NCBI GenBank assembly: GCA_963759275.1
Contig: CAVWYZ010000014.1
Coordinates: forward strand, 865,201-929,200
Direction: 5' to 3'
Origin: Candidatus Acidiferrales bacterium
GTDB lineage: Bacteria; Acidobacteriota; Terriglobia; Acidiferrales; UBA7541
Length of the DNA stretch: 64,000 nucleotides
The number at the start of each line of letters is the position of its first letter. Position 1 is the first letter of the stretch. Below are positions 3 to 25,116 of this stretch, piece after piece. Both the position numbers and the translations under genes were made by a program. Under the pieces are notes generated by a model. The model searched no databases. It was not told where the DNA came from and saw only the letters and a program-made list of their open reading frames with translations.

Positions 3-3000
3 AGCACGGCTGGGCCGACCACAGGATTGGCAACTGGAATTGGCGGCGGAGGACCGATCACGGTCTCCGCAACTTTCGGTTCCATCGTCAGCAGCACAAC
101 GGGCGGCGACGGAAATTTGACGGTTGTAGGAATCACGTCGTTGGTGCTCACGCCAGCCGCACCCACGGCTTATCTGGGGGACGCGAATCCTTTGAATCCT
201 GTGGGTACGCAAAACAATACCGTGGCATTCACGGCTACGGTCAACTATAGCGACGGCACTTCGACAAACGTGACGACGGCTGCCAACTGGAGCTCCGGCA
301 CTCCGGCGGTAGCAACGATCAGCAACACGGTGGGAACGCAGGGCCAAGCGACAATATTAATAGCGGGGACGAGCACGATCACTGCGACGTATGCGGGGGC
401 TTCGGGAAGCACCCTGTTGACAGTGTCGCCAGCGTTGCTAGAGTCGATCGCGCTGACCCCGACGAGCGTGTCGTTAAGCCTGATGGGCACGCAGCAATTC
501 ACAGCGACGGGCACGTTCAGTGACGGCACAAGTCAGGACGTTACCGCGCAAGTATCCTGGCTATCGGCGGACCCGTCGGTTGGAATCGCCCCGGGCGGGC
601 TGGCAACGGCACTCGGCTACAACGCGGGTGCGGCGATAACCGCGAGCGAGATTAACGCGGCAGGGACCACGATTATTTCTCCGTCAGCGACGGTGCTGGT
701 GCCAGCACCTACGCTGGTGATGATCACAGTCACACCTCCTTCGATATCCTTAGCTGCGGGATTCACGCAGCAGTTTGCCGCGACAGGAACGTATTCCGAC
801 GCGAGCGTGAAGGATGTGACTGCTCTAGTTACTTGGGGATCGAGCGATACGACGCTCGCAAGCATAACCAGCGGCGGCCTGGCTTCCGCGCTGAAGGTGG
901 GGATGGTTACGATATCGGCGACCTCCGGCAGTGTGGTAGGTTCCACGACGTTCACGGTGACAGCGCCGATCCTGCAGTCTGTTGCTGTTTGTCTTGGACC
1001 CTATCCCTCCTCGACCTGTGGCAGCAGTACGGTTTCGGTCGGCGTTACGTTGGGTCTGAATGCCACACAGCAATTTTCCGCGCTGGGGATTTACAGCGAC
1101 AGCAGTACGCAGGACCTTACCGCGACTGCAACATGGCAAGCGCACGATCCGATCGAAGTGAACATCAACAGCGCCGGGTTGGCGACGGTGATCGGAACGG
1201 ATAACGGTGCGCACGCGATTACCGCGAGTTACGGGACGATTGGGCCGTATCTCAACTCGAACACGGGATGGGTAACGGCGTCTTCGACACTGCCGATCTC
1301 GTGCCCGTCGCCGACCATCGATATGAGGATATTGGTGGTGAACAACACGGCGCAGGGTTATGCGGATTATCCGGCGATCCAACAGATTTTGAATTATGTG
1401 GGGACGCCATACGACGTGGTCGATGTTTCGAGTGCGGCCCCCACATTGTCCGATGGTGGCTGCCACGGTTATTACCAGGGTGTGATCTTTGCCTACGGCG
1501 GTGACTACTACAACATAGGCTCGTGGCAGGCGGCGTTGATTTCGTATGAGCAGACTTTTGGAGTGCGGCAGCTGAACTGGTATTCCGCGCCGGATCCCAA
1601 CTTTGGATTGGGTTACACCGGAACGCAACTAAACACGACCCCTCCACCGACCGGAACCGGAGCGTACACGGCGCCGTTCACGCTGGCAGCCGCGCCCGTT
1701 TTCTTTTATGCAAATACGACCACGCCGCTATCGATCACATATGCGGCGGTCGATTTGGCGACAGCCGCGCCCGCGGCGGGAGGTGCGTTAACCCCGCTAT
1801 TGCAAGATACCCAAGGCAATATTGTCTCTGCGATTTACACCCTCAACGGACAACAGTTCCTCACGCAGACGTTCGATAGCAACGCGTCTCTGACACACGA
1901 TCTGATCGTGGCGTACGGTTTGCTGAATTGGGTGACCAAGGGCGTGTTCTTGGGTGACTACCACGTGTACGCCACACAGTCGATCGACGACTTTTTCATC
2001 GACGATTCAGAATGGATACCGGGCACCGCGTGTCTTGCAAACCCATTGACGTTGGACCGCACAGCTCCGGACGCATCGAATCTGCCGGTGTTCCGGGTGA
2101 ACTCCGCCGACATGGCGCAGTTGGCGAAATGGCAGACAAACAAACAAGCAGATCCTCTCCTGGCGCAGTTTGAATTGACGATAGCGATGAACGGAGTAGG
2201 GACCACAGGGAACGGCGACTGGAGCGGTCTGATAGCGCCGATCATCTCTTCGTCCGCAGGCAGCGGAGCGGCGACCTTCACGGCACAAGACTTCGCGGCA
2301 TTAGCGGGCCAGACGGTTACCGTAACAAATACAACAAACGGTGGCGGGGTGCTCAACGGGACTTGGACGATCACTGCGGTGACCTCCAGCTCGGCGACCA
2401 CTCCCGGCACAACTACGTTTGTGGTAAGCATGCCGGGTGCACCAACTCTTATTACAACGGCGGAGAGAGGAGTAGCCGACAACCCGGGGAGCGCGACCGC
2501 GAGCATTGCTGACGATCTGACCGCGAATCTGCAAAGTTATCAACAGTCCTTTCATTGGATGAGTCACACCTATGATCATCCATCCACTTTGAACGGCCTG
2601 TGCCAGAGCACGCCCACCGGTACGGGTTGCGGTGATACGGATAATCCGGCGGTCGACGACATCGACCTGGAGATTCTGACGAACCGCTATGTGGCCTCGG
2701 ACCCGAGCGCCACGGCGGCGTGGATGCTAGACAGCGATCCAAGTGACGCGGTGAAGCAGCTCACGTTCAACGATTTCAACGCAGCCAACATCGTGACGCC
2801 GGGGGTAACCGGACTGAATGACCCGAATGTGCCCGCGTACCTATATAACGATGGGATTCGCTATGCGGTGAGCGATACATCGGTGGCAACGACGATCACT
2901 CCTCCGAACAACAACGGACCGAATCCTTCGCCGAATGTGGGGATCGTCAACAGCTACGCGCCCGGAATTTACGAGATTCCGCGGAAACCCAATGACATCT

Positions 3001-3659
3001 TCTATAACGTGGCGAATTGGGCCGACGATCAGGCCGAATTTGACTGCATTTATTCGTATTATGTACCGCCAGGATCACCGGTGGGCACCGTACCGGTGCC
3101 AGATCCACCGTTCAATACTTACAATGCCGCGCAAGTGCTGGACTTCACGAGCTCGGCGTTCCTGACCAACATGCTGATGGGCGACATGGATCCGGAAATG
3201 TTCCACCAGCCGGATCTGCACTTCTCGGACAATTATGTGGCGTTGAACAACGCGGCGCCGAGCGGCACCATTCCGGCGAGCGTGTCCAATTTTGTGGGCA
3301 CCAGCGGGACGCACGTGTCGTCGCTGCTATCGGACACCTACGATCTGACGTTCAGCAAGTACGAAGCGGTGTACAAGCTGCCAGTGCTGACGCCAACGCA
3401 GGATCAGTTGGGCGTGCTGATGCAGAATCGCAACTCGTTCAACTTATCAAATGTAACCGCGAGCATAGTCGGGGCCAACACCTCAAGCGCGACAATTACA
3501 ATTACGATGCCGACATCGGCAACAGTTCCGACGGCGATCATCCCAATTACTGGACTTGCTCTGCCACCCTTGACCCCTGGCTCAGAAATATATGGTGGGC
3601 AGAACATCGCGCACATCACCCTGACGCCGGGGCAGACCATCACGTTTTCCCTGAAATGA
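3..3659 (+). CDS. Large secreted protein, 5'-partial: several Big_2 Ig-like domains followed by an Agd3/CE18-like polysaccharide deacetylase module
   Basis: The frame is open to the window edge. Ig repeats of type SIALTPTSVSL..TQQFTATGTFSDGTSQDVT..V.W.S. C-terminal half has Agd3-like motifs: YEQTFGVRQL..Y..P, TQSIDDFFI (DD), MSHTYDH (HxxxH), EIPRKPNDIFYN, MFHQ. Confidence 0.8.
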   Translation, partial: STAGPTTGLATGIGGGGPITVSATFGSIVSSTTGGDGNLTVVGITSLVLTPAAPTAYLGDANPLNPVGTQNNTVAFTATVNYSDGTSTNVTTAANWSSGTPAVATISNTVGTQGQATILIAGTSTITATYAGASGSTLLTVSPALLESIALTPTSVSLSLMGTQQFTATGTFSDGTSQDVTAQVSWLSADPSVGIAPGGLATALGYNAGAAITASEINAAGTTIISPSATVLVPAPTLVMITVTPPSISLAAGFTQQFAATGTYSDASVKDVTALVTWGSSDTTLASITSGGLASALKVGMVTISATSGSVVGSTTFTVTAPILQSVAVCLGPYPSSTCGSSTVSVGVTLGLNATQQFSALGIYSDSSTQDLTATATWQAHDPIEVNINSAGLATVIGTDNGAHAITASYGTIGPYLNSNTGWVTASSTLPISCPSPTIDMRILVVNNTAQGYADYPAIQQILNYVGTPYDVVDVSSAAPTLSDGGCHGYYQGVIFAYGGDYYNIGSWQAALISYEQTFGVRQLNWYSAPDPNFGLGYTGTQLNTTPPPTGTGAYTAPFTLAAAPVFFYANTTTPLSITYAAVDLATAAPAAGGALTPLLQDTQGNIVSAIYTLNGQQFLTQTFDSNASLTHDLIVAYGLLNWVTKGVFLGDYHVYATQSIDDFFIDDSEWIPGTACLANPLTLDRTAPDASNLPVFRVNSADMAQLAKWQTNKQADPLLAQFELTIAMNGVGTTGNGDWSGLIAPIISSSAGSGAATFTAQDFAALAGQTVTVTNTTNGGGVLNGTWTITAVTSSSATTPGTTTFVVSMPGAPTLITTAERGVADNPGSATASIADDLTANLQSYQQSFHWMSHTYDHPSTLNGLCQSTPTGTGCGDTDNPAVDDIDLEILTNRYVASDPSATAAWMLDSDPSDAVKQLTFNDFNAANIVTPGVTGLNDPNVPAYLYNDGIRYAVSDTSVATTITPPNNNGPNPSPNVGIVNSYAPGIYEIPRKPNDIFYNVANWADDQAEFDCIYSYYVPPGSPVGTVPVPDPPFNTYNAAQVLDFTSSAFLTNMLMGDMDPEMFHQPDLHFSDNYVALNNAAPSGTIPASVSNFVGTSGTHVSSLLSDTYDLTFSKYEAVYKLPVLTPTQDQLGVLMQNRNSFNLSNVTASIVGANTSSATITITMPTSATVPTAIIPITGLALPPLTPGSEIYGGQNIAHITLTPGQTITFSLK

Positions 3660-3746
3660 CAGATTTTGGGGCCGGGTTTGAGTTTTTGACAAATACCCGG
3701 GGTGCAGTCGTTCGACCTAAGTAAAGGACAGAGACGGAGGAACAGT

Positions 3747-4910
3747 GTGAGCCAGATTTTCGAAGCACTGACCATCGCGCATGATCGAGCTGTTGAGAAG
3801 CTCGTGGACCGGCAAGTCGATGCCGATGAAACGATCACCGTTGCACCGGAGCGTTTCGTTTTCACCCATCAGAAGATCAGAAATGGTTTGATCGTCGCCT
3901 TTTTTGTCGTGGGGTTGACCCTGCTGGCAACCAACTATGCTTTTAAAGGGAACGCTCTGGTTGCCAAAAGCCAGCCGATTTATGGAGTGGCGTTTGAAAG
4001 CACGGTGCATCCGGCAAGCGAATTCGGGATCACCGCGGACCTGAGCGGCACGGTGTCGAGCATTTCGGTAAAGGTGGGGGACAAGGTGCAACAGGGTCAG
4101 TCACTCTTGCACATGGATGGACGCGAAGCGGAACTAGCGCTAAAACAGGCCGGGGGAGAGCTGCGTGCGGCCGAAGCAAACCTGGAGGAATTTAATGCAC
4201 ATGCGGATGCGGACGCGCGTGTGGCGGAATCGCAAAGACGAGAACAACGCATTCCTTCACGGCAATTTCGAGATTCGCCGGAACGGGCAAAGGCCGCGTA
4301 TGACCTCGCACTGAGCAACTACAACCGTGCCAAGGCGTTAAACGATGCGGGAGTGATGTCAAAACAGGAGCTAGACGGGAAAGAGACGGAACTGCGCATC
4401 GCGCAAGATGATTTAGAGAATGCCAAGAAGCTCGCGGCGGCTTCCTCTACGCTAGAACAGGAGCAGGCGACCCAAGTTGATTCGCAGGCCGCCGTTGCCC
4501 GCGAACGATTGGAGCAGCAATTGAATCAGGCGCGGTTGACGTACGAGCGCGCCAAGGAACAAGCGGAAGCAAGAATGGTGCGGACCACGCAAGCAGGGGT
4601 AGTGTCTGAAATTCCGGTGCATCTTGGCGATCGCGTGACGGCGGGAACGATCTTAGTGCGCCTTGCAGAACTCGATCACATGATCGCAGAGGTCCCAGTT
4701 GCCGCACGGATGATTGCGGAACTAAAGGTCGGCCAGCCGGCACAAGTGATACTGCCGTCGTCGCCGCCGCAGCAGGTGGAGGGGAAGGTCAGACTTATTA
4801 ATCCACTGCCATCGGCGAACATGACGCATATCGTCGAAGTCGAATTCGACAATCCAACTCTCCTGCTGCTGGCGGGACAGAGCGCAGAGGTCCGGTTCTC
4901 CAAGCGATGA
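3747..4910 (+). CDS. HlyD-family membrane-fusion/periplasmic adaptor protein with an ExeB-like N-terminal helix
   Basis: GGAGG precedes GTG at 3747. One TM helix, biotinyl-lipoyl-like halves (SGTVSSISVKVGDKVQQGQSLL; AGVVSEIPVHLGDRVTAGTIL), long coiled coil and beta-barrel end. N-terminus reads MSQIFEALTIAHDR. Confidence 0.8.
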   Translation: MSQIFEALTIAHDRAVEKLVDRQVDADETITVAPERFVFTHQKIRNGLIVAFFVVGLTLLATNYAFKGNALVAKSQPIYGVAFESTVHPASEFGITADLSGTVSSISVKVGDKVQQGQSLLHMDGREAELALKQAGGELRAAEANLEEFNAHADADARVAESQRREQRIPSRQFRDSPERAKAAYDLALSNYNRAKALNDAGVMSKQELDGKETELRIAQDDLENAKKLAAASSTLEQEQATQVDSQAAVARERLEQQLNQARLTYERAKEQAEARMVRTTQAGVVSEIPVHLGDRVTAGTILVRLAELDHMIAEVPVAARMIAELKVGQPAQVILPSSPPQQVEGKVRLINPLPSANMTHIVEVEFDNPTLLLLAGQSAEVRFSKR

Positions 4911-6415
4911 CTGCAAAAAGACGGATATCTGTACTGTTAACGACAGAAGGCACCTATCCCTTCTACACCGGAGGTGTGAGCAAGTGGTGCGATCGACTGA
5001 CCCAGGGTTTGCCGGACGTGGATTTTGACGTGCTCGCCGTCGTCACGAACCCGTATCCGGAGGCCAAGTACGAACTCGCGGATAACGTGCGGACGGTGAC
5101 TAAAGTTCCGCAATGGGGCCTACTGCAGCCTGCAGAATTCTCGCGCCACCAACCGACATCACTGGTTCTGCGCAACATGTGGGACACAACAAGACAAGTG
5201 ATCGAGGATCGCTTCCGGCCGATCTTTGAGCGATTCCTTTCCCTGGTGTTTTCGTCGTCCTGCGACAAAGAGGAACTGGGCGAAGCGCTACTTGATCTGC
5301 AACGTTATTTTCAACACTACGATTATGCGCGCACGATGAACTCGCTGGACGCGTGGGACGTGCTTCAGCATGCGGTGCATGCCTCATGGGAATGCCGCCC
5401 GGCGGCCGCAGAGGATCCGACTTTGGCCGAGGTGAAAGAAGCGTACCGGTTGCTGTATCACCTTCTGATGGTCCTGCACTTTCCGATCCCGGAGGCGGAT
5501 ATTACACATTCTTCGTCCGCCGGCTTCTGTGGGCTGCCTTGCATCTTGGCGAAGCTGGTACACGGTACGCCTTACCTGCTGACCGAGCACGGGGTTTATT
5601 TGCGGGAACAGTATCTGAATCTGCGTCGTCAACTGAAATCGGTCTTCGTACGATGGTTCCTGTGCCGGTTGGTTGAAAACGTGGTCGAGCTGAACTATTT
5701 CTTTGCCGACCAAATTTCCCCGGTATGCGCTTTCAATTCCCGCTGGGAAGAACATTTAGGCGTACCGCGAGACAGAATCAAGGTGGTGTTTAACGGCGTC
5801 GATCCCGAGCGATTCCAGCCTAGCGAACGGGAGCACAATGACAGGCCGTTAGTTTCCACCGTAGGGCTTATTTACCCACTGAAAGGCCAACTCGATTTGA
5901 TTCACGCGGCGGCCATCGTCAAGGAGAGCTACCGGGACCTGGAAATACGCTTTTATGGCGCGTCCAACGACCCCGTCTATTACGGGGAGTGCGAGCGCAG
6001 GGTCGCCGAACTGCACCTGGAAAACAATGTCACTTTCGCGGGAACCACAAAGGAGCCCTGGAAGGCCTACAGCAACGCGGATGTTGTGGCGATTCCGAGT
6101 ATCTCCGAGGGGTTTCCATTCGCGGCGTTGGAGGCCATGTTGTGCGGGTCAGCAATTGTGGCGACGGACGTGGGCGGCGTAGCAGAGGCCATCGGCGATT
6201 GCGGACTGCTGGTCCCCGCGAAGACGCCGCAAGCGATGGCCGAGGCGATCACCTTTTTGCTGAGTGACCCAGCGACGCGCGAACGACTGGGCCGGAATGC
6301 GCGTGCGAGAGCTTTGGCACACTTTACAGAGCAACAATTTCTAGATTCCTACGAAAACACCTACCAGCAGTTGCGAGACTACCGTCCGCAGGGACTTACC
6401 AGGCGTCGCGCGTAA
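4907..6415 (+). CDS. pelF: PelF-type GT4 glycosyltransferase (DUF3492 + Glycos_transf_1)
   Basis: N-terminal VLLTTEGTYPFYTGGVSKWC, LLTEHGVYLRE, and the GT4 signature SISEGFPFAALEAM. ATGA overlap with the upstream gene. Confidence 0.85.
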   Translation: MTAKRRISVLLTTEGTYPFYTGGVSKWCDRLTQGLPDVDFDVLAVVTNPYPEAKYELADNVRTVTKVPQWGLLQPAEFSRHQPTSLVLRNMWDTTRQVIEDRFRPIFERFLSLVFSSSCDKEELGEALLDLQRYFQHYDYARTMNSLDAWDVLQHAVHASWECRPAAAEDPTLAEVKEAYRLLYHLLMVLHFPIPEADITHSSSAGFCGLPCILAKLVHGTPYLLTEHGVYLREQYLNLRRQLKSVFVRWFLCRLVENVVELNYFFADQISPVCAFNSRWEEHLGVPRDRIKVVFNGVDPERFQPSEREHNDRPLVSTVGLIYPLKGQLDLIHAAAIVKESYRDLEIRFYGASNDPVYYGECERRVAELHLENNVTFAGTTKEPWKAYSNADVVAIPSISEGFPFAALEAMLCGSAIVATDVGGVAEAIGDCGLLVPAKTPQAMAEAITFLLSDPATRERLGRNARARALAHFTEQQFLDSYENTYQQLRDYRPQGLTRRRA

Positions 6416-6429
6416 ATCGGAGAACGAAT

Positions 6430-7566
6430 GTGCGGTCTGTTTGGATCGTGTTGGCTATGATGACCATCGCAGCGACTAACCTGTCGTTCGGGCAAAACGC
6501 GCAGGCAGGGAACGCGGTATCGGTCCGGCTGGCGATTTACTATGGCTATCCAAGCCTGGTCAACGAGGCCCGTGGAGATGTGGCGAAGGCCGCGAGCGTG
6601 TTCAGTGCTTATGATGTGGTGGTGCTGGGAGACGGGTTGGAGTTTGCAGACGTGAAGCAGGGCCGTTATCCGGAAGGCGATCCCGGAGAACATCTGAAAT
6701 CGATGCAGATTATTGCTGCCGTACAGAAGCGCAGCCCTACTACCCGCTTTTACGGATATATATGCCTCGGAGAAATTCCGTGGCCGAAAGGTCAACAAAC
6801 AGTACTCTCTCTTCAACTGCTTCAAGAGCGGATAGAGCTTTGGAAACAGATGGGCGTGTCCGGGATTTTTCTAGATGAGGCAGGTTACGACTATGCGGCG
6901 GTGACCCGGGAGCGACAGAACTTCGCGGTGCGGACGATCCACGAATTGGGACTGAGCGCGTTCATGAATGCTTATTTTATCGACCACTTGTTTAGTCCTG
7001 ACGACAATTTACCCCACTCAGCGGGAACGGGGAAGAATCCAAAACATCTCGCCGCCCTATTAGATAGGCGCGATCTTTTCCTGCTTGAGTCGTTCCAAGT
7101 GAAGAGCGGCGCATACGAAAGCATCGATGCGGCGCAGTCGCGGATAGACCGCGCGCTCGGTTATAGGCGTCAATTCGGGTCTAAGGTTTTCGCGACAACG
7201 ACGACTACAGTCCAAGAACCATTTAACGGCGAAAAATTCAACTATGCCTGGTGGACCGCACGATTGTACGGCCTGGACGGATTCAGTTGGGGAGAGCCTG
7301 AGTTTTCGGCGCTGAACAACTTACTCCCCGATCGTCGGTGCGCCACGACCACAGTGCCGCCGTTCGAGCCTCGGTCCGCCGTTCAGTCCGACGGCGAACA
7401 TCTCTGGAGGAAAGCAGGGCCTTACCTGGTAGTCGTCGACACGGAGAAGCACACGGTTCGCCGGATCCTGCAGGTTGATCGCGTCGTCGAAGCAAAATCG
7501 ATTCCCGCGCTGCTGAGTCCGTCGCCAAAGAACTCTCCATTGACATGTGAGGGAGCCGCGGAATGA
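6430..7566 (+). CDS. Secreted TIM-barrel glycoside hydrolase, PelA-hydrolase/Ega3/Sph3-like (alpha-1,4-galactosaminidase candidate)
   Basis: Signal peptide. Motifs IYYGYP, YDVVVLG, FYGYICLG, GVSGIFLDEAGYD and FLLESF give two candidate catalytic acids. Context is next to pelF. Confidence 0.6.
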   Translation: MRSVWIVLAMMTIAATNLSFGQNAQAGNAVSVRLAIYYGYPSLVNEARGDVAKAASVFSAYDVVVLGDGLEFADVKQGRYPEGDPGEHLKSMQIIAAVQKRSPTTRFYGYICLGEIPWPKGQQTVLSLQLLQERIELWKQMGVSGIFLDEAGYDYAAVTRERQNFAVRTIHELGLSAFMNAYFIDHLFSPDDNLPHSAGTGKNPKHLAALLDRRDLFLLESFQVKSGAYESIDAAQSRIDRALGYRRQFGSKVFATTTTTVQEPFNGEKFNYAWWTARLYGLDGFSWGEPEFSALNNLLPDRRCATTTVPPFEPRSAVQSDGEHLWRKAGPYLVVVDTEKHTVRRILQVDRVVEAKSIPALLSPSPKNSPLTCEGAAE

Positions 7567-9104
7567 GCCTGAATCCAAGCGAGATCGAAGAACAACTGCG
7601 CAACGACGGGAATAGTAAAGCGCGATTTCTTAGTCACGGCGAGGTCGCGGCCTTGCTCGAATCGCTCGGTTACAACGATCGTTTGTCCAAGCATCTCGGC
7701 TACTCGAACATCTTCACGTTCGCAGAACATCTCTTTTTAAATCTTCAACGGGATCCGGCGGTAGCAAACCGGCCGGCACAAATATCCGGCGAGCGGTCAC
7801 TCTTAACGGAGTTGCAGTACGCGTTGCGCAAGTTCTCGCTCAGCCTTGCCTATGTCATTCCCTGGATGGCTCTGCTGGTCATGGAGTATCTGCGGCCGAA
7901 TGCGCTCAACGTCCCTCCGGAATTGGGCGGCGCCTTAAGCCTTGCGTTGATCGGGAGCCTGATCGCGACGGGTGGATTCATTCAGGTAATCTCCCGTGGC
8001 GGCAACTTCTATTTTGGTCTGAAAGAGCCTTCCCTGGCGCGACACACGTGCATGAAATTTTTGAACCTGGGATTGACTACCAGCCTACTGCTGGGGTTGC
8101 TGGGTATGATTGTGGGAGCGTACTTCCACCTTTTCGCTGGGCACTATCTCTTGCTGGCGGCGATAAACTTTGTGGCCCTTAGTGCGCTTTGGATGTACTG
8201 CGCCGTCTTATCGGTGCAAGGCCTTGGTTGGTGTGTGCTGCTGGTGTTCTTACTGAGCGCAATGATATGCGGATGCGCGAAGGTTCTGGCCGGCGCGGGA
8301 AATACTCTGCTGTTAACCCTCTGGCCGGTAACGGCTGCCTTGTGCGCCTTTGCCGCAATGCACATGGGTTTCCGCCGTGCTGAAGCTAAAATGTCTGGCG
8401 CTCGTAATAGTGCGAGACCCCGGTTCGGGGTGCAGTCCATCTCCTTGCTGTCGTTTTTCCTGTACGGCACTTTTTATTTCAGCTTTTTATTCGCAGACCG
8501 ACTCGCGGCCGGCAGCGCTGTGCCTTGGGTTTCCGGCCTGAGTTTTGGGATCGACCCGGCTTATAAGAAAGGGATGGACCTGGTTCTGCTGGCCTTCCTG
8601 ATCACCGCGGCAGTGGTGGAGTATCTCAGCGACTCATTCTTGCGATTCTGGCGGGGATTAGCAGCAGAGTTGGAGCAGTCTCGCAATGAAGAATTGGTCC
8701 TAAAACTACGGAAGCGGCACTGGAAAATGATCGGAATCATCCTGTTGATGTTTGTGGTTGTTGCCACGGGTGCGTGGTTCGCATTTTCCCGCGCGAGCGG
8801 AGCGCTACTTTCACCCCGGTTGTTGGAAACGGCGGCGATTGGGGGACTTGGTTATCTAATGTTGAGTATTGCGCTGCTGGAAATCGTTATCTTGTCGAGC
8901 ATCAATTCCACTTCTTTGGCAATGGTCGCCACTGCATTAGGACTTGCCGTGAATCTGGTCACAGGCTACGGGCTGAGTCACTTTGGAGGAGTGCAGTATG
9001 CCGCTGGTGGATTACTTGCCGGGGCGGCAGTGCTGTTATGGACCTGTAACGCGGCGGTAAGGCAAGTACTGCGCCGACCGGATTATCACTATTCCATTTC
9101 CTGA
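7563..9104 (+). CDS. PelG-like multi-pass exporter/flippase
   Basis: About 12 hydrophobic segments after a soluble N-terminal region, FYFSFLFADR motif, position in a pelF operon, ATGA overlap. Confidence 0.55.
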   Translation: MSLNPSEIEEQLRNDGNSKARFLSHGEVAALLESLGYNDRLSKHLGYSNIFTFAEHLFLNLQRDPAVANRPAQISGERSLLTELQYALRKFSLSLAYVIPWMALLVMEYLRPNALNVPPELGGALSLALIGSLIATGGFIQVISRGGNFYFGLKEPSLARHTCMKFLNLGLTTSLLLGLLGMIVGAYFHLFAGHYLLLAAINFVALSALWMYCAVLSVQGLGWCVLLVFLLSAMICGCAKVLAGAGNTLLLTLWPVTAALCAFAAMHMGFRRAEAKMSGARNSARPRFGVQSISLLSFFLYGTFYFSFLFADRLAAGSAVPWVSGLSFGIDPAYKKGMDLVLLAFLITAAVVEYLSDSFLRFWRGLAAELEQSRNEELVLKLRKRHWKMIGIILLMFVVVATGAWFAFSRASGALLSPRLLETAAIGGLGYLMLSIALLEIVILSSINSTSLAMVATALGLAVNLVTGYGLSHFGGVQYAAGGLLAGAAVLLWTCNAAVRQVLRRPDYHYSIS

Positions 9105-9113
9105 GCTCTCCCA

Positions 9114-10874
9114 GTGCCGCCAATCGATCTAGTGCGAGCCGTTTGGATCTTATTCATTTTTACCACGGTGTTTTTCTTCGCGCCGATCTATCTCACCCCA
9201 ACTCGAGAGAGCCCCATGCAACTCCTCCGAGTAGTCGGCAACTTTGTCCGCGCACTACTCGCGGTGGCGATCGTGAGTGTAGTGCTGTCGCGTCTGAAGA
9301 TTTTCAACGCCACCACAATGCTTTTGCTTTTGCTACTTACACTGGTGATCGCCTGGGTGCGCAAGCGCGCGGCAACTTCCCGCGATTGGCTTACAGGCTT
9401 GCAAGAAGCGGTAATCGGAATCGTACGCTTCAGCGAAGGTCAATCGCGCAGTCGTCTCAGGAATGCACCTGCTCCGACCGAACAACGCGAAACGACGTCA
9501 CTTTTGACGGCTCTGCGAGGGAAAGAAATGCTGGCCGTAGCCCTCGTTGTGGTGGTGATCACGACGGGCGTCCTGTTCTTTGCACATTCTTTCCGTGAAC
9601 TGCGTCTCGACCAACCCGAGCAATATGAAGAGTTACTTCGGGGGCGAGAACTGATGCTTAACCTGCCTGTCCACGATCGTCCAGTAGTGTTCCCGTCTGT
9701 GGTGGCGACGATTGCGTTCCTTAGCAGTGCGGATCCAATGGACGTTACGCGCTTCCTAACGCCGGTGTTTGAATTATTCCTGGTTTTTGCGGCTGGCCTC
9801 TTGATTTTCGTATGCACCCGTGGCGCTGTGACCGCCATCGCGGCTGTCTATTGTTTAGGAACAGCCGCTTTCCAGTTCAGCGGAGGTGACGGAGCCGTAC
9901 CGATTTCCGCCGCGGAAAAGATCGAAAGCCTCCTCCGGAGCTCGTTGACAAGAACGCGAGGAAGTCCCGAGTTCGAAATTGGGCTGTTGTGCGTGGTGTT
10001 GACCCTGGCATTTCTGACGACCTGGCTCGAAGACGGCCGGGACTGGGATTCGCTGGTGGACGCAGCGTGCTGCGTGGTGATAGTCGCGGTGGCGTCTCCG
10101 TTTTTGCTTCTCGTTTGTATGATAGCGGCGGGATCGGTGCTGCTTCGACCGGTGGCGGGAATTGCAGCGTTTGTCCTCGTTTCGTACGGCTTGGCCACCT
10201 ACGGCGTGCTGTCTGGCGATCTGAGCGTTCCGCACGGGGGGTATCTGATTCTTGCGCTCGCCGCGGTATTGGGCGTGGGCTGCCTTCTGGGAATAATCGA
10301 ATCGAGATTGCTGGTGCCCATGGGAAAGACCGCCGAGCGAACACTTTTATTTGCTTACGTAGCCGTCGCCGTTCTGGTATTCCGTCCGCACCCGGTTGCT
10401 GCCCAATACCTTGAATACGAAAAAGCGGCTCGTGAAACGCAAGTGATTGCCGATCGATTCCCGCGTCAAACATGGGCCGTTGTGGCTCCCATAGAGCAAT
10501 TGGCGGAAACCCTGGGGTTGGGAGGATACGAGGATTTAGCGAACTTTGTTGAGAAGTATAAGGATCAAGCCGCGAATCCTGAGTTTCGTATTCCTGACGT
10601 GCCGGAGGATTTGTTCATCTATGTCGAAAAGACGCCGTTCCAGTTTTTCTCGCGCGAACCCCAAGTCGTCCCGATGAGTGTACTGGCCGACAGCACCTAC
10701 CGCAGTTACCGTTCACCCGCAGGGCGGGCCAGCCTGGAGTCGGCTGCACTACGGCTCTGTGAAAGCTATCAGCAATCGCACGGCAGCTCGACGGACATAT
10801 TTTATGAGGACCAAGCTCTGCGCATCTATCATTTGCGCCGGGAACCCAATTCGAAAACGGGAACAGGAGGCTGA
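9114..10874 (+). CDS. Unknown multi-pass membrane protein with a C-terminal extracytoplasmic domain (possible GT-C-like or polysaccharide-modifying enzyme)
   Basis: Many TM segments, then a soluble C-terminal domain (EYEKAARET..WAVVAPIEQL..LFIYVEKTPF..YED..LRIY). Tightly linked to the operon. Confidence 0.55.
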   Translation: MPPIDLVRAVWILFIFTTVFFFAPIYLTPTRESPMQLLRVVGNFVRALLAVAIVSVVLSRLKIFNATTMLLLLLLTLVIAWVRKRAATSRDWLTGLQEAVIGIVRFSEGQSRSRLRNAPAPTEQRETTSLLTALRGKEMLAVALVVVVITTGVLFFAHSFRELRLDQPEQYEELLRGRELMLNLPVHDRPVVFPSVVATIAFLSSADPMDVTRFLTPVFELFLVFAAGLLIFVCTRGAVTAIAAVYCLGTAAFQFSGGDGAVPISAAEKIESLLRSSLTRTRGSPEFEIGLLCVVLTLAFLTTWLEDGRDWDSLVDAACCVVIVAVASPFLLLVCMIAAGSVLLRPVAGIAAFVLVSYGLATYGVLSGDLSVPHGGYLILALAAVLGVGCLLGIIESRLLVPMGKTAERTLLFAYVAVAVLVFRPHPVAAQYLEYEKAARETQVIADRFPRQTWAVVAPIEQLAETLGLGGYEDLANFVEKYKDQAANPEFRIPDVPEDLFIYVEKTPFQFFSREPQVVPMSVLADSTYRSYRSPAGRASLESAALRLCESYQQSHGSSTDIFYEDQALRIYHLRREPNSKTGTGG

Positions 10875-10965: not shown

Positions 10966-11886
10966 ATGTACACCGACTTTTACAAGCTGACGCGCAATCC
11001 ATTTGAAATAACGCCCGATCCTTACTTTCTGTATTCCACGAAAAGGCATAAAGAGGCGCTGGCCGCGCTTTATTACGGAGTTCGCCAGCGCAAAGGGTTT
11101 GTGGTGCTGACCGGTGAAGTGGGCACGGGAAAGACGCTGCTGATCCGTTGTCTCTTGCAGCTATGCAAAGGCACGGACATCGCTACCGCGTACGTCTTCA
11201 ATAGCCGGTTGTCGACTCTAGAATTTCTGCAATACGCAGCAACTGATTTGGGCCTCGCCGCCAGTAACAAACCAAAAGGCGACATCCTGGTCGATTTGAA
11301 CCGGTTTCTCCTCAGTCGTTACCATAAAAAATTAACGACTATGATGGTCGTGGACGAGGCGCACCATCTCTCGACCGAAATTTTGGAAGAGATCCGCCTT
11401 CTTACGAATTTGGAGACAGCGGATGAAAAGCTGATCCAAATTGTTCTGGTGGGACAATCGGAACTGAGCGACAAGCTGGACTCCTACGAGTTGCGGCAGC
11501 TGAAACAGCGCATTGCACTGCGCGCTTATCTGGAGCCGCTGGATCTAGAGAACACCAAAGGGTACGTGCGCTGCAGACTTCAGCTCGCCGGAGCCAATTC
11601 CGTTGCGGCCGCTTTGCTTCCAGATGAAACGGTCGCGAGAATCCACCACTTCTCGCGGGGCATCCCGCGTTTGATCAACACCATCTGCGACAATGCGTTA
11701 CTTACAGCATTTGCAAGGCAATTAACGAGTGTGCCCGCCAGCGTCATCGACGAAGTCGCTGAAGAACTGCGATTGCATGTCGGACGGCTGCGCAGTTTGT
11801 CGCTGTTCGAGATGGCTAAGGATCCGGATCAAACGCTGTCCGCTGGACAGAGGCTGCTGGAACTGCGGCAACACCAAAGTCTGTAG
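10966..11886 (+). CDS. ExeA/GspA-like AAA ATPase lacking the C-terminal peptidoglycan-binding part
   Basis: MY..FYKL..NPFEITPDP.FLY, Walker A GEVGTGKT, Walker B MVVDEAHHL, IVLVGQSEL, GIPRLINTICDNALL. Confidence 0.9.
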   Translation: MYTDFYKLTRNPFEITPDPYFLYSTKRHKEALAALYYGVRQRKGFVVLTGEVGTGKTLLIRCLLQLCKGTDIATAYVFNSRLSTLEFLQYAATDLGLAASNKPKGDILVDLNRFLLSRYHKKLTTMMVVDEAHHLSTEILEEIRLLTNLETADEKLIQIVLVGQSELSDKLDSYELRQLKQRIALRAYLEPLDLENTKGYVRCRLQLAGANSVAAALLPDETVARIHHFSRGIPRLINTICDNALLTAFARQLTSVPASVIDEVAEELRLHVGRLRSLSLFEMAKDPDQTLSAGQRLLELRQHQSL

Positions 11887-12086: not shown

Positions 12087-15000
12087 ATGACGTTTTGTGG
12101 CAAACGAGTGGGTAGTTGCTGCCCAACTTTATGGGCGATGCTAACGTTTTTTGTTGTCCTGACAATGACACTGCAAGGTTGCGCGACGACGAGTAAAACC
12201 AACGTTCAGACGATTCCTCCCCTCAGCGTTTCCGTTTCTTCGCTGCCGAATGGACAGGTTGGAACGGCGTACACCGCCATGCTCACCGCAACCGGCGGAG
12301 CTACCCCGTATTCGTGGACGCTGGCCAGTGGGACACTGCCGGCAGGGCTTGCGTTGAATGCTGCTACCGGCGCCATTACGGGGACACCCACGCAGGCAGT
12401 GTCGAATGCTGCGCTTAGCTTTAAGGTGACGGATTCCAGTGTTCCGCCACAGACACAAACAGCCAGCCTCACGCTAACCGTAGACGCCGCGGTGATTCCA
12501 GTGAGTATCACCACAACATCGCTACCAACTGCGACGGTGAACGTGGCATATTCGCAGCAACTGGCGGCGACGGGTGGCAGTGGAAGCTGCACGTGGACAC
12601 TGACTACGCCGGTAGCCGGCTTCTCACTGAGTGCTTCCGGGCTGTTGACTGGCACACCGACGAGCACGACGACTCTCTCGTTGCAAGTAAAAGCGACCGA
12701 CAGCAAGAGCAGCAGTAATTCCGCAACAGCGACGCTCTCGCTGCAGGTCAGCGCAGCAGTTACGCCTGTGAGTATCAGCACGACTACTCTACCAGTTGCC
12801 ACGGAGAGCACCGCCTATTCACAGCAACTCGCGGCCACCGGTGGCAGTGGCAGCTATACGTGGACGCTGACCGCGCCGGTGACTGGCTTTTCGCTGAGTG
12901 CCTCCGGACTGCTGACCGGCACACCGGCGAGCACGGCAACACTTTCGTTCCAAGTGAAGGTAACCGACAGCACGAACAGCAGTAACTTCGCGACGGCGAC
13001 GCTTTCGCTGACGGTCAATGCCACGGTGACCCCGGTGAAGATCACGACAACCACGTTGCCCGCGGCGACCGTGAACGTGGCGTACTCACAGCAACTGGCT
13101 GCGAGTGGTGGCAGTGGCAGCTACACGTGGACCTTGACCACTCCGGTGAGCGGCTTTTCGCTGAGCAGTTCTGGGTTACTGACCGGCACACCAACAAGCA
13201 CGACAACGCTTTCGTTCCAGGTGAAAGCGACGGACGCCACTAGCAGCAGCAACTTCGGGACCACTACGCTCTCGCTAACGGTCAATGCCACCGTGACTCC
13301 TGTAAGCGTTACTACAACGACGTTGCCTGCGGCCACGGTGAACACTGCCTACTCACAGCAACTGGCCGCGAGTGGTGGCAGTGGCAGCTACACGTGGACG
13401 TTGACCACTCCGGTGACGGGCTTCTCGCTGAGTAGTTCTGGGCTGTTGACCGGCACGCCGACAAGCACGACGACGCTTTCTTTCCAGGTGAAGGCCACAG
13501 ACACCAAAACCACGAGCAATTCCGGGACCGCGACCCTGTCGTTGACCGTTCATGCGGCCGCGACTCCTGTAAGCGTGACTACGACCACGTTGCCCGCGGC
13601 GACGGTGAACGTGGCGTACTCACAGCAACTGGCTGCGAGTGGTGGCAGTGGAACGTATAACTGGACGCTGACGACTCCGGTGACGGGCTTCGCATTGAGC
13701 AGCGCTGGGCTGCTGACCGGTACGCCCACAAGTACGACGACGCTTTCTTTTCAGGTGAAAGCGACGGACACCACCAGCGGCAGCAACTTCGGGACGGCGA
13801 CGTTATCCCTGAAGGTGAACGCGGCGGTGGTCCCTGTAAGCGTGACCACAACGACGTTGCCCGCGGCGACGGTGAACGTGGCGTACTCACAGCAACTGGC
13901 CGCGAGTGGTGGAAGTGGAACGTATAACTGGACGCTGACCACTCCGGTGACGGGCTTTTCGTTGAGCAGTTCAGGGCTGCTGACCGGCACACCAACAAGC
14001 ACGACGACGCTTTCGTTCCAGGTGAAAGCGACGGACTCCACCAATAGCAGCGACTCTGGAACCGCCACACTGACGTTATCGGTCAACGCTGCTATTAGCG
14101 GGTCAGCCTTCTACGTTTCTCCTTCCGGAAGCGATTCGAATACCGGCACGCAGTTATCACCGTGGAAGACCATTCAGCACGCGGCCAATTCCGTGCACGC
14201 GGGAGACACCATTTACGTGCGCGCGGGGACCTACAACGAGTCCGTGACCATTGCGGTTTCGGGATCAGCAGCGGCCGGTCCGGTAATTTTCCAGAGCTAC
14301 CCCGGAGAGACGGCGATTGTGGACGGCACCGGGTTGACGCCATCCACTTCTGACGTGCAAGGGCTGTTTAACATCGAGGATGAGAGTTACGTCACGATTC
14401 AGGGATTCGAGATCCGTAACTACCAGACCTCGAGTTCCTCAGCCACGCCGGCGGGTATTTGGATCACCGGAGCAGGGAGCAACATCCAGATCCTGAACAA
14501 CGTGATTCACAACATCGTCACCACGTCGGAGGCCAGCGGCAACGCTTTTGGTATTGCGGTCTATGGGTCGGAAGCGCCCGCTGCGCTGGACAGTGTGACC
14601 ATCAGCGGCAACCAGGTGTACAGCTTGAAGACCGGCAACAGCGAGACGGTGAACGTGGATGGGAACGTGACGAACTTCGTGATCAACAACAACATCATCC
14701 ACGACAACGACAACATCGGCATCGATGTGATCGGATTCGAGGGAGTATCGCCGAATTCCGCGTACGACTATGCGCGGAACGGGGAAGTGAGCGGGAACAC
14801 GGTATACAACATATCGGCGATCAACAATCCGGGAGAAGGGAATGAGTACGATGCCGACGGGATCTACGTAGACGGGGGATCGCAAGTGGTGATCGAGCGC
14901 AACCTGGTGCACAACTGCGATCTGAACATCGAGGTGGCCAGCGAGCACAAAGGGCACGTCAGCAGCTACGTGACGGTGCGAAACAACCTGGTGTATGCGG

Positions 15001-15530
15001 GCAATTCCGTGGGCATTTCGATTGGCGGGTATGCCAGCAATGTGGGCGGCACGGACCACTGCACCATCGTGAACAACACGCTGTACGGCAACGACACGAA
15101 GAATACCGGCAGCGGGGAACTGCAAGTGCAGTACTACGCCACCAACAACATCTTCGAGAACAACATTGTGTACGCCACGTCGCAGGGTCTGCTGATCAAC
15201 AACTACACGAACAGCGAAGCGAATCCGGTGGTGGTGGATTACAACCTGTACTTCTCTTCGGTGAACTCGGGGTCGGCCGATTTTATCTGGAACGGCACAG
15301 ATCACACGGGATTTTCCGGCTACCAGTCGGCGACGGGGAACGACAGCCATTCCCAGTATGCCGATCCGCAGTTCCTGAGCCTGACAACACCGAACTTGCA
15401 GGTGCAAGCGACATCCCCGGCCGTGAATGGTGGGACGAACCTGGGGGCCGCGGTGGTGGGCACGGTGGACTATGCGGGTAATGCTCGCGTGCAAGGCAGC
15501 ACCATCGATATCGGCGCTTACGAACAGTAG
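12087..15530 (+). CDS. Predicted lipoprotein with 7 He_PIG (putative Ig) repeats and a C-terminal right-handed beta-helix (DUF1565/PL9-like) domain
   Basis: Lipobox LQGC at residue 32; seven ~89-aa repeats (TTTLP.ATVNVAYSQQLAASGGSG.Y.W); FYVSPSGSDSN.GT..SPWKTIQHA..GDTIYVRAGTYNE followed by beta-helix repeats. Confidence 0.85.
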   Translation: MTFCGKRVGSCCPTLWAMLTFFVVLTMTLQGCATTSKTNVQTIPPLSVSVSSLPNGQVGTAYTAMLTATGGATPYSWTLASGTLPAGLALNAATGAITGTPTQAVSNAALSFKVTDSSVPPQTQTASLTLTVDAAVIPVSITTTSLPTATVNVAYSQQLAATGGSGSCTWTLTTPVAGFSLSASGLLTGTPTSTTTLSLQVKATDSKSSSNSATATLSLQVSAAVTPVSISTTTLPVATESTAYSQQLAATGGSGSYTWTLTAPVTGFSLSASGLLTGTPASTATLSFQVKVTDSTNSSNFATATLSLTVNATVTPVKITTTTLPAATVNVAYSQQLAASGGSGSYTWTLTTPVSGFSLSSSGLLTGTPTSTTTLSFQVKATDATSSSNFGTTTLSLTVNATVTPVSVTTTTLPAATVNTAYSQQLAASGGSGSYTWTLTTPVTGFSLSSSGLLTGTPTSTTTLSFQVKATDTKTTSNSGTATLSLTVHAAATPVSVTTTTLPAATVNVAYSQQLAASGGSGTYNWTLTTPVTGFALSSAGLLTGTPTSTTTLSFQVKATDTTSGSNFGTATLSLKVNAAVVPVSVTTTTLPAATVNVAYSQQLAASGGSGTYNWTLTTPVTGFSLSSSGLLTGTPTSTTTLSFQVKATDSTNSSDSGTATLTLSVNAAISGSAFYVSPSGSDSNTGTQLSPWKTIQHAANSVHAGDTIYVRAGTYNESVTIAVSGSAAAGPVIFQSYPGETAIVDGTGLTPSTSDVQGLFNIEDESYVTIQGFEIRNYQTSSSSATPAGIWITGAGSNIQILNNVIHNIVTTSEASGNAFGIAVYGSEAPAALDSVTISGNQVYSLKTGNSETVNVDGNVTNFVINNNIIHDNDNIGIDVIGFEGVSPNSAYDYARNGEVSGNTVYNISAINNPGEGNEYDADGIYVDGGSQVVIERNLVHNCDLNIEVASEHKGHVSSYVTVRNNLVYAGNSVGISIGGYASNVGGTDHCTIVNNTLYGNDTKNTGSGELQVQYYATNNIFENNIVYATSQGLLINNYTNSEANPVVVDYNLYFSSVNSGSADFIWNGTDHTGFSGYQSATGNDSHSQYADPQFLSLTTPNLQVQATSPAVNGGTNLGAAVVGTVDYAGNARVQGSTIDIGAYEQ
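12501..14090 (+). repeat. Intragenic tandem repeat, 267-bp period (He_PIG repeats 2-7)
   Basis: gtgagtatca recurs at 12501 and 12768 (267 bp apart); later units are progressively more similar to each other. Confidence 0.85.
13570..15529 (+). repeat. Direct repeat copy 1 (~1.96 kb), partner at 17063-19022
   Basis: Constant offset of 3493 bp. About a dozen mismatches by eye, all in the first ~600 bp; the rest appears identical. Confidence 0.9.
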
Positions 15531-22629: not shown

Positions 22630-22686
22630 TCTGAGCATTGGGCCCCGGGAGCCTTGCTGAAGACTCGTGAAGAGCCGGAGGATCAG

Positions 22687-23820
22687 GTGGCTCAACGATC
22701 GGAGCACATCCTAGGCGCAGATCAGTTGGACAAACTGATTGAGGTGTTGGTGCGTAAGGGCTTCGAGGTCATCGGACCGACCCTGCGTGACGGAGCGATC
22801 GTCTATGACCATGTTGCGTCCGCCAGAGATCTGCCTAGTGGGTGGACTGACGAACAGGAGCCGGGGCGTTACCAGCTGAAGCGTCGCGAAGATGAGGCTC
22901 TGTTCGGATACGCGGTGGGACCACAGAGCTGGAAGAAATACACGCACCCAGCGGAAGTGCGGCTCTGGTCGGCCGCGCGTGACGATGGGACGTTCCGAAT
23001 CCTGAAGAATGAAGTGAAACCAGAACGTTCATATGCGTTTCTGGGGGCGCGAGCATGCGAGCTGGCAGCAATCGCGATTCAAGACCGCGTGCTGATCGAG
23101 GACCAATACCCTGATGCGACGTACGGCAAACATCGCAGAGGAGCGTTCATCATTGCCGTGCAATGCACTCAGGCCGCGGCAACATGTTTTTGTGCGTCAA
23201 TGGGAACAGGGCCGCAGGTGTCCGCTGGGTTAGACCTTGTGCTCACCGAGTTGCTTGGGTCCAAAGGGCATCGGTTCCTGGTAGCCACAGGCAGCGATCG
23301 CGGCGCCGAGGTACTCACCGAACTGGAATCGGTTCCCGCCACTGGAGAAGACCGTCAAGAGGCTGAAACGAGGGTCGCAGCGGCGGGTCGCGAGCAGGTG
23401 CGCAGCATCGACACGATAGGCATCAAAGAGCTCCTCTACGAAAACTTTGAGCATTCGCGCTGGGACAACGTGGCCAGCCGCTGCCTGACGTGTGCCAACT
23501 GCACGATGGTTTGCCCCACGTGCTTTTGCACGTCGGTGGAGGATGTGACCGACATTACCGGGGAGTACGCGGAACGGTGGCGCCGCTGGGATTCCTGCTT
23601 CACGCAGAGCTTTTCTTACATCCACGGAGGGAGTGTCCGAACCTCAGCCAAATCACGTTACCGCCAGTGGATGACGCACAAGCTGGCCTCGTGGATCGAC
23701 CAGTTTGGCAGTTCCGGATGTGTTGGCTGCGGGCGTTGCATTACCTGGTGCCCGGTGGGCATCGACATTACGGAAGAGGTCCGGGCGATTCGGGAGGGAG
23801 TGAAGAATGGAAACCCTTGA
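22687..23820 (+). CDS. hyhB: Group 3b [NiFe]-hydrogenase (sulfhydrogenase) beta subunit, 4Fe-4S dicluster
   Basis: [32 protein letters not shown] and [12 protein letters not shown] motifs. Confidence 0.9.
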
Positions 23821-24268
23821 GCGCATCATCACGGAGCACCCATTTTTCGTGGGGCTGGACGACGCCTTCACAAATCTGATGGTGGGTTGCGCGTCTAACG
23901 TACGCTTCCAAGCCGGCACCTACATCCTTAAGGAAGGAGACCCGGCAAACACGTTTTACCTGATTCGAGAAGGGAAGGTGGCCGTAGAGGTGCTCGCGCC
24001 GCAGCGCCCGCCGATCATCATTTCGACTCTAAGCAACGGAGAAATCCTAGGGTGGTCGTGGCTGTTGCCACCCTTTCAATGGAAATTCCACGCGCGGGCT
24101 GTCGAGGACGTGCGCGCCATCGCCCTCGATGGAAAGTGTCTGCGCACAAAGTGCGAGGAGAACCACGATCTCGGCTACGAAATTTTGAAGCGATTTGCCC
24201 GGATCATCGAATTGCGGCTCGATGCCACGCGCTTACAGTTGCTCGACGTATACGCAGTCCGGCGATAG
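23807..24268 (+). CDS. Stand-alone cyclic-nucleotide-binding domain protein (no HTH)
   Basis: [33 protein letters not shown]; ends without a Crp HTH. Confidence 0.85.
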
Positions 24269-24270
24269 TC

Positions 24271-25116
24271 ATGATGGCAACAAGAATCATCACCGACCCA
24301 ATGCTTCCGGAGCCTTTTGCGGTGCGAGAGGTAGCCAAGGAGACACCGGACACATTTACCCTAAGTCTCGAGCCCGAGAGGACTGTTAATAGAACTTTGT
24401 TCCAGCCCGGACAGTTCAGCATGCTGTGGGTTTTTGGAGTCGGTGAGTTGCCGATCTCGATTAGCGGCGATCCTGCATTGCACGATCGCGCGGTGTACAC
24501 GGTGCGATCCGTTGGTCGGGCCACGCACGCGCTGGTAAACCGGCGAGTGGGTGACAGCGTGGGCGTGCGAGGTCCATTCGGCGCGGGCTGGCCGTTAGAG
24601 GCCGCTCGGGGACGGGACGTCATCGTGGTCGCTGGCGGGATCGGCCTGGCGCCTCTGCGACCGTTGGTCTACGAGGTCTTGCAGAATCGGAAAGACTATG
24701 GGCGTTTGGTGATTCTATACGGAGCGCGCAGCCCGCATGACCTGCTCTATCGCAAGGAACTCGCGGCATGGGCGCGCAACCATGAGACGCAAGTGCTGGT
24801 CACGGTCGATTATGGTGGCCTGAACTGGCGGGGTCACGTGGGTGTGGTGACGACGTTGTTCAAGTACTCTCGGCTGCAACCTGGTCGTTCAGTTGCGATG
24901 GTGTGCGGGCCAGAGATTATGATGCGCTTCGTTACACGCGAACTCGAAACACACGGGCTCAGCCGCGGAGATATCTACGTTTCAATGGAACGCAATATGA
25001 AGTGTGCCGTTGGTTCTTGCGGGCATTGCCAGTATGGGCCACATTTCATTTGCAAAAACGGACCGGTGTTCTGCTACGAACAGCTACGGCCGCTATTGGA
25101 GAAGTATGAGCTCTGA
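24271..25116 (+). CDS. hyhG: Group 3b hydrogenase gamma subunit (FAD/NAD(P)-binding, 2Fe-2S)
   Basis: [52 protein letters not shown]. Confidence 0.9.

Follow-up and report, generated by a model that had tools for sequence, protein, structure and literature searches.

The stretch analysed here, called the window, comprises 64,000 nucleotides of Candidatus Acidiferrales bacterium (C14:865201-929200 of a 5.95-Mb genome in 22 contigs), and it opens inside a giant gene whose product carries a module of the Agd3 deacetylase type at its C-terminal tip. The open reading frame (ORF) at window 3..3659 of the plus strand runs open through the first base of the window, and the gene is cut by the window edge. 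Read upstream in the same frame, the full ORF starts at C14:860172, which is 5028 bases 5' of the window, and encodes 2895 amino acids (aa) in 8.7 kb; window positions 3-3659 represent the 3' 42% of the gene. The first-pass annotation of the window had put the protein at more than 1200 aa, a bound which the full ORF bears out, being the second-longest open frame of its genome. From the N- to the C-terminus, the protein consists of a Sec signal peptide, four choice-of-anchor-D immunoglobulin (Ig) domains, 18 Big_2 domains and the Agd3-type head. The gene stands first in an acidobacterial operon that is conserved and whose downstream genes are co-oriented and tightly packed.

The Agd3-type head

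The head is 789 aa long (window 1290-3656, full-length residues 2107-2895) and is almost certainly a CE18-family deacetylase module, with its activity predicted. A Pfam search of the full 2895 aa matched only Ig-type domains and Agd3_CE (PF25115), the latter scoring 40.4 bits in the window part of the ORF (gathering score 27.6). The match covers only profile positions 174-306 of 366, because a beta insert splits the domain. The profile CBM87_Agd3 (PF25116) reached 18.3 bits, under its gathering score of 27.6; the region is still covered by profile and fold alignments to the Agd3 structure 6NWZ, and a precomputed PF25116 match exists for several orthologs. A single-sequence phmmer search of the head against the PDB returned no match. 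A family profile built from 71 diverse homologs (identity to the query 29-80%) recovered Agd3 6NWZ among the PDB sequences with E=7e-80, along chain residues 23-679 of 684 and including all three Agd3 domains, and its next matches were to the N-deacetylase half of human heparan sulfate NDST1 (E about 2e-5). The AlphaFold2 (AF2) model of the head is of high confidence (mean predicted local distance difference test score, pLDDT, 90.2; predicted template-modelling score, pTM, 0.93). Foldseek placed 6NWZ as its best PDB neighbour, with E=9.5e-33 and a template-modelling (TM) score of 0.73 normalised to Agd3 over 844 aligned columns, and the CE18 assignment that the first-pass annotation had proposed to check by such a model is upheld. 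PelA (9CGY) gave a TM score of only 0.22 against the same model. The head is of the Agd3/CE18 type, and not of the PelA/CE21 or CE4 type. The label "fungal-type", given to it earlier, is misleading, since bacterial Agd3 homologs in exopolysaccharide (EPS) operons have already been reported in the main text of PMC7229062 and the identity to Agd3 is ~16%.

The catalytic motifs of Agd3 are described in the main text of PMC7229062 as the base D377, the metal triad D378/H510/H514, the base-coordinating R613 and the acid H668. In the profile alignment to 6NWZ, these residues are paired with D233, D234, H426, H430, R565 and H639 of the head, and the corresponding Agd3 stretches read QIDDMF, ISHTFTHE, NPRW and MFHQAN. 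The DD, HxxxH, R and MFHQ motifs, which had been read from the window in Agd3 order, are all present and aligned with the catalytic motifs CM1-CM4 of 6NWZ. Two overlapping HxxxH candidates exist, HWMSH and SHTYDH; HWMSH was set aside as the metal motif, as the conserved pair aligned with Agd3 H510/H514 is H426/H430. The DDHHRH residue set is retained in 67/71 diverse homologs, and at the level of sequence this retention of six residues argues for selection on catalysis. It also bears on a different view of the protein, in which it serves chiefly as an adhesin or matrix scaffold and the Agd3-like head is a carbohydrate-binding tip, not an enzyme. The architecture does recall giant Ig-repeat adhesins with ligand-binding tips, and a CBM87-like domain is present. 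However, the six catalytic and metal residues are kept both here and in those homologs, and Pfam on the full protein found no RTX repeats, type I secretion system (T1SS) signal or inverse-autotransporter barrel, which leaves an adhesin highly improbable.

Between CM1 and CM2, the AF2 model contains a confident six-strand all-beta unit. It occupies the place of the beta2-insertion of Agd3, which the main text of PMC7229062 describes as helical, 64 residues long and flanking the active-site groove. The CM1-CM2 spacing is 191 residues here versus about 132 in Agd3; a long spacing occurs in 92/245 homologs, the rest having about 60-120 residues. No family was found for the insert by Pfam and NCBIfam search, even at E<=10. 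Insert-bearing homologs are mostly stalked, yet 36 stalked homologs are without it, and the insert as a companion of the stalk is therefore no rule. Lying beside the active-site groove, it may alter substrate handling.

The stalk and its variation among orthologs

The true N-terminus, whose recovery the first-pass annotation had proposed, lies upstream of the window and shows a cleavable Sec signal with no membrane anchor seen. The signal peptide MKVNRRFRVAVGFSILILLLGMAAPGAKA, followed by QS after cleavage, has a basic n-region, a ~16-residue hydrophobic core and an A-x-A site when read by eye, and by its sequence is of the cleavable type-I Sec kind; the same reading by eye found no lipobox cysteine at the N-terminus. 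No sorting signal follows the C-terminal beta domain, which was read to the stop codon.

The signal peptide and 22 Ig-like domains make up the 2106 aa ahead of the head. The choice-of-anchor-D model (NF012200) scores 202.6 bits in 4 stretches, where the Pfam matches are of the Cep192_D4/ASH/HYDIN type. Using a profile built from the protein itself, 18 Big_2 domains were counted at residues 435-2092, and the Big_2 Pfam score is 59 bits for the window part of the ORF. The earlier count of at least four Ig domains is right for the window, with its four whole Big_2 domains, and too low for the protein. No other protein of the genome has a long Big_2 array. Within this array, a block of eight Big_2 domains is duplicated in tandem (residues 520-1244 and 1263-1983; L001:11729-16120, the second block ending at about window 920), with 66% protein and 68% DNA identity. 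Because the blocks are only 68% identical in DNA, the duplication is, judged on its sequence, an old internal event and not an assembly artefact. Tandem Repeats Finder reported no repeats in the gene, the Ig repeats being too diverged in DNA. The duplication adds ~740 aa and is the reason why the protein exceeds its same-genus relatives, which have open frames of about 2000-2180 aa. Each Ig domain spans ~3.6 nm in rods such as invasin, and 22 of them would reach about 80 nm when extended. The usual periplasm measures 20-30 nm, and 80 nm is several times that. The choice-of-anchor-D domains belong to a family (NF012200) that is defined by its occurrence in surface proteins.

The head family comprises 1011 representatives (50% clustering, E<=1e-3). 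Named close relatives come from Terriglobales, Candidatus Acidiferrum or Acidobacteria, and are labelled publicly as "hypothetical" or "choice-of-anchor D domain-containing protein". The distribution is patchy, with 2/301 species-representative genomes in an even sample of the phylum and 5/201 of the order, all five in the window's own genus and with up to 3 copies per genome; these counts come from a loose first-pass search and may be undercounts. In some same-genus genomes, two stalked Agd3-type genes lie about 13-15 kb apart (G368:C1:5901245-5919322; G385:C4:620114-636087), and by their arrangement such pairs suggest duplicated operons.

The sequence ahead of the head measures 0 to about 1230 aa in complete-looking members, the upper bound being the length limit of the homolog search, with a median of about 200 aa; it is 2106 aa here. 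P0057 (809 aa, in a syntenic operon, L002:9056-12430) was considered as a stalkless member and rejected, as its start is miscalled; the open frame extends farther upstream, past one Big_2 domain and a low-complexity (Pro-Thr)n linker of about 200 aa, to a signal peptide, and the linker and single Big_2 domain replace the Ig array. A lipoprotein-type signal opens several stalked orthologs, including P0042-44 (...LLLLVSC, then GG), P0096 and P0016. In those orthologs, a lipobox at the N-terminus places the tether opposite the enzyme and leaves the enzyme distal. Extended spacers of different kinds, made of Ig domains or of a Pro-Thr linker, share the same position, and this comparison of sequences supports the view of the N-terminal region as a putative spacer or tether, and not as a second activity.

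The operon, its polymer and the site of action

The features of the gene and of its operon are collected in Table 1.

Table 1. Positions and basis of the features discussed (window coordinates unless prefixed by a locus; residues are those of the head module unless marked full-length)
Feature	Position	Strand	Basis or remark
End of stalk	3..1289	+	four whole Big_2 (183-413, 447-671, 723-947, 1026-1247) and the end of a fifth
CBM87-like alpha/beta domain	1314..1934	+	aligned to 6NWZ residues 23-220; AF2 pLDDT >90; PF25116 18.3 bits
CE18-type deacetylase barrel	1935..3389	+	PF25115 40.4 bits; profile vs 6NWZ E=7e-80; Foldseek TM 0.73
CM1 SIDDFF, D233/D234 (D2339/D2340 full-length)	1986..1991	+	predicted catalytic base and metal ligand
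All-beta insertion of ~90 aa, CM1-CM2	2226..2504	+	module residues about 313-405; clade-specific, no family match
CM2 H426-T-Y-D-H430 (H2532/H2536 full-length)	2565..2579	+	predicted metal ligands
CM3 R565, IPRKP (R2671 full-length)	2982..2984	+	predicted to position the catalytic base
CM4 MFHQ, H639 (H2745 full-length)	3198..3209	+	predicted catalytic acid
C-terminal beta-sandwich domain and stop codon	3390..3659	+	profile alignment to 6NWZ; AF2 model
HlyD/RND-type periplasmic adaptor (membrane-fusion protein)	3702..4910	+	Pfam, NCBIfam; beside the deacetylase in relatives too
PelF-like glycosyltransferase family 4 (GT4) protein (DUF3492 + Glycos_transf_1)	4907..6415	+	NF038011 PelF 157.8 bits vs cut-off 100; Pfam
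Secreted 378-aa (beta/alpha)8-barrel protein, candidate glycoside hydrolase	6430..7566	+	AF2 fold; signal peptide
513-aa polytopic membrane protein, possibly PelG-like	7563..9104	+	faint precomputed PelG match on L002 ortholog
586-aa polytopic membrane protein, family-less, kept in operon	9114..10874	+	synteny in relatives
AAA_22 ATPase, ExeA / PEP-CTERM-associated type	10966..11886	+	TIGR03015 283.5 bits, under cut-off 324.5; AAA_22
UpxY antiterminator and, before it, small PilZ protein	L001:9412-9990 and L001:8725-9255		upstream of the window

Three independent metagenome contigs share the gene order deacetylase, adaptor, PelF-like protein, ~360 aa, ~510 aa and ~590 aa, and a GH114 gene is added in one ortholog operon (L002). 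The 378-, 513- and 586-aa neighbours gave no Pfam or NCBIfam match, even at E<=10. For the exporter PelG, the 513-aa protein itself is without a match and only its L002 ortholog has the faint one. None of the seven operon proteins was matched by Pfam or NCBIfam to PelA (GH166 + CE21), PelB (TPR + porin), PelC, PelD or PelE, a search that covered the operon and not the remainder of the genome. In L002 and L004, Pel9A-like beta-helix genes were noticed close to the ortholog operons.

The 378-aa protein has more than 450 homologs, with invariant FLDEAG and LLESF motifs. It gave no match in a phmmer search against the PDB, and AF2 models it as a (beta/alpha)8 barrel (pLDDT 81.6) whose closest folds are GH168 endo-fucanases (TM about 0.54), along with the PelA GH166 domain 5TCB (TM 0.54, target-normalised). 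On the strength of this model, it is a plausible candidate for a separate hydrolase, and it may represent an unclassified glycoside hydrolase family tied to the operon. The earlier statement that hydrolase and deacetylase are separate genes stands insofar as the operon holds no PelA-like fused enzyme; the separate hydrolase itself is only a candidate, with moderate fold likeness and no family name.

Upstream, outside the window, lie a TviC/GalE-like NAD-dependent 4-epimerase, a LuxR-type response regulator on the opposite strand, and, directly before the giant gene, an UpxY-family NusG-like antiterminator (121.7 bits versus a cut-off of 100). Antiterminators of the UpxY type are typical of long polysaccharide operons. 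As read from the gene content, the UpxY and PilZ genes hint at processive antitermination and cyclic di-GMP control of the operon.

The HlyD-like adaptor was considered as a T1SS part serving the giant protein, and this was ruled out: a Sec signal is present, RTX repeats are not, the operon has no ABC transporter, and the adaptor also stands beside short-spacer orthologs.

Beyond the operon, two paralogous right-handed beta-helix enzymes (DUF1565 / pectate-lyase-like) on He_PIG Ig stalks, at window 12087-15530 and 16609-19023, flank an extracytoplasmic function (ECF) sigma gene and provide a second case of a stalked enzyme, adjacent to the operon. Further on, window 22654-27213 holds [NiFe]-hydrogenase genes, namely Fe-S, NAD-binding/Fe-S, small subunit (Oxidored_q6) and large subunit (NiFeSe_Hases).

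The best overall explanation, in which we have fair confidence, is that of a stalked CE18 enzyme deacetylating the operon's own polymer, similar to Pel or to galactosaminogalactan (GAG), outside the periplasm. The operon would make a Pel/GAG-like N-acetylhexosamine polymer, probably of alpha-1,4-linked N-acetylgalactosamine (GalNAc). The 4-epimerase would supply the UDP-sugar, the PelF-like GT4, the PelG-like protein and the second polytopic protein would polymerise the chain and carry it over the inner membrane, and the periplasm would be spanned by the HlyD-like adaptor. The enzyme at the tip would then strip part of the N-acetyl groups through a divalent-metal mechanism and, in the manner of Agd3 on GAG, give the polymer positive charge and adhesiveness. 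The ~80-nm spacer would keep the enzyme far from the N-terminal end, with modification in the surface or matrix layer and not on a PelB-type periplasmic scaffold. No PelB-type tetratricopeptide repeat (TPR) scaffold was seen in the operon by Pfam and NCBIfam.

Several points weigh against this explanation. Activity, substrate and location are all matters of inference. Concerning the substrate, the identity to Agd3 is only about 16% in the fold alignment, and the substrate could differ; the second structural neighbour of the head is NDST1 (8CCY, 9F6Z; TM about 0.45), well ahead of PelA; and the epimerase scores under every curated cut-off. Concerning the location, the full protein is without a lipobox, PEP-CTERM, beta-barrel or recognised outer-membrane secretion or sorting signal; as read from its sequence, no recognised signal gives its route over the outer membrane, and its N-terminal attachment, if any, is putative. 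In the synthase-dependent systems of diderm bacteria, polymer modification normally takes place in the periplasm (PMC12022489). Some orthologs, such as P0112 and P0121, have a plain signal peptide and no stalk at all, and the chemistry therefore does not require one.

That the head modifies a GalNAc-type polymer of its own operon is nonetheless probable. PelF uses UDP-GalNAc, and both Agd3 and PelA de-N-acetylate alpha-1,4-GalNAc, according to the text of PMC7229062 and of PMC12022489. The substrate points would also suit a true CE18-type de-N-acetylase acting on another polymer, for instance one containing N-acetylglucosamine (GlcNAc) or uronic acid, in an operon that is not a Pel/GAG equivalent. 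The low identity and the NDST1 neighbour would fit such an enzyme. So would the best match of the epimerase, which lies far under cut-off and is to TviC, a UDP-GlcNAcA (N-acetylglucosaminuronic acid) 4-epimerase. In addition, the operon has no recognisable PelA, PelB, PelC, PelD or PelE, PelG has only the faint match on the L002 ortholog, and the hydrolase candidate is as close to GH168 fucanases as to PelA GH166. However, the PelF equivalog model is over its curated cut-off, and GH114, found in one ortholog operon, is linked in the main text of PMC7229062 to Agd3 homologs on deacetylated GalNAc polymers; another polymer is, on these grounds, quite improbable.

The location points lead to a further alternative, in which the same enzyme works in the periplasm like PelA, with the Ig array folded back or bound to peptidoglycan or to the export machinery (the adaptor and the polytopic proteins). 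Periplasmic modification is the rule in the Pel, poly-N-acetylglucosamine (PNAG) and alginate systems (PMC12022489). The sole signal is Sec, with no outer-membrane targeting signal, the gene of a periplasmic adaptor is directly next and always syntenic, and there are orthologs with no stalk. However, 22 Ig domains of ~80 nm are set against a periplasm of usually 20-30 nm, the choice-of-anchor-D family is defined by surface proteins (NF012200), and the operon has no PelB-type TPR scaffold. Overall, a periplasmic site appears rather unlikely.

Action outside the periplasm, as in the favoured explanation, is given slightly better than an even chance. With a ~80-nm stalk, several times the width of the periplasm, the enzyme probably acts at the cell surface or farther out, and plausible circumstantial support is offered by the stalk length, the choice-of-anchor-D domains and the orthologs with a Pro-Thr spacer or an N-terminal lipobox. 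Agd3 itself acts extracellularly, and its bacterial homologs lie in EPS operons, as stated in the main text of PMC7229062. Going further, the stalk could be a spacer that sets where the polymer turns cationic, with the enzyme tethered N-terminally and de-N-acetylation taking place only after export and at a defined spacing from the outer membrane, an idea that is speculative and, as it stands, unlikely. If true, this diderm bacterium would follow the fungal, extracellular logic of GAG maturation and not the periplasmic PelA/PelB logic, and spacer length (0 to >2100 aa among orthologs, grown here by the eight-domain duplication) would tune the thickness of a non-adhesive inner layer.

Comparison with known systems

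Acidobacteria are abundant soil bacteria with copious exopolysaccharide, and the present module extends CE18 to them. The orthologs represent a natural series for the position of the enzyme, ranging from no stalk through a Pro-Thr linker and a lipid-anchored stalk to arrays of 5 to 22 Ig domains. Should nothing beyond the ordinary reading be true, the gain is one of annotation.

The closest known relative is Agd3 of Aspergillus fumigatus (6NWZ, PMC7229062), which is the best profile and fold match, has the same carbohydrate-binding module (CBM), deacetylase barrel and C-terminal beta domain with the four motifs in the same order, and is likewise encoded beside polysaccharide synthesis genes. 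The present protein differs in its bacterial diderm host, its ~16% identity, the 2106 aa of signal peptide and 22 Ig-like domains in front, and the all-beta insert of ~90 aa in place of the helical beta2-insertion (CM1-CM2 of 191 versus about 132).

Agd3 homologs in 45 bacterial species, from Actinobacteria, Deinococcus-Thermus and Proteobacteria, are reported in the main text of Bamford 2020 (PMC7229062), mostly in or near operons that also encode a cytoplasmic glycosyltransferase, a multi-spanning membrane protein and, in many cases, GH114. Both the enzyme and the kind of EPS operon around it are already known from that text. A GH114 gene, present in some of those operons, was also seen in the L002 ortholog operon; Acidobacteria are not among the phyla listed there, and its text contains no Ig stalk or barrel insert. 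According to the same text, the Gram-negative operons carry Pel outer-membrane components, whereas a HlyD-type adaptor and an ExeA-like ATPase are found here instead. The literature searched, including the main text of PMC7229062, held no acidobacterial host, no Ig or Pro-Thr spacer of up to 2100 aa, no beta insert and no adaptor/ATPase export set replacing PelB/PelC; this comparison is with the text, and not with the figures or supplement, of PMC7229062, whose Fig. 8c domain cartoons could show extra domains. A literature search for Agd3 or PelF with Acidobacteria returned nothing relevant.

Long bacterial Ig rods with a functional module at the far end are known from invasin/intimin, SiiE and MpIBP-type adhesins. 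Unlike these giant adhesins, the present protein has a predicted enzyme at its tip and an N-terminal Sec signal, with no beta-barrel anchor, RTX repeats or T1SS signal. The PelA_DA of Bacillus cereus (CE26 + CBM114; PMC13254593) shares a three-domain layout recalling Agd3 and is an extracytoplasmic Pel deacetylase encoded apart from the hydrolase; it differs in its CE family (no match in the profile search of PDB sequences), its Gram-positive host and its lack of a stalk.

The pelABCDEFG system of Pseudomonas aeruginosa resembles the present operon in the PelF-like GT4 and in the presumed partial de-N-acetylation of an amino-sugar polymer. PelA (GH166 + CE21), however, is compact, resides in the periplasm and docks on the TPRs of PelB (PMC12022489), while here the protein is stalked, the deacetylase is of the CE18 type, hydrolase and deacetylase are separate genes, and PelB, PelC, PelD and PelE are not recognisable. 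Pel and GAG become cationic and sticky through partial de-N-acetylation, a step that descriptions from diderms have so far placed in the periplasm and tied to a TPR-porin. With its CE18 enzyme on a ~80-nm spacer and no recognisable PelA, PelB or PelC, the present operon suggests a second way to organise this step.

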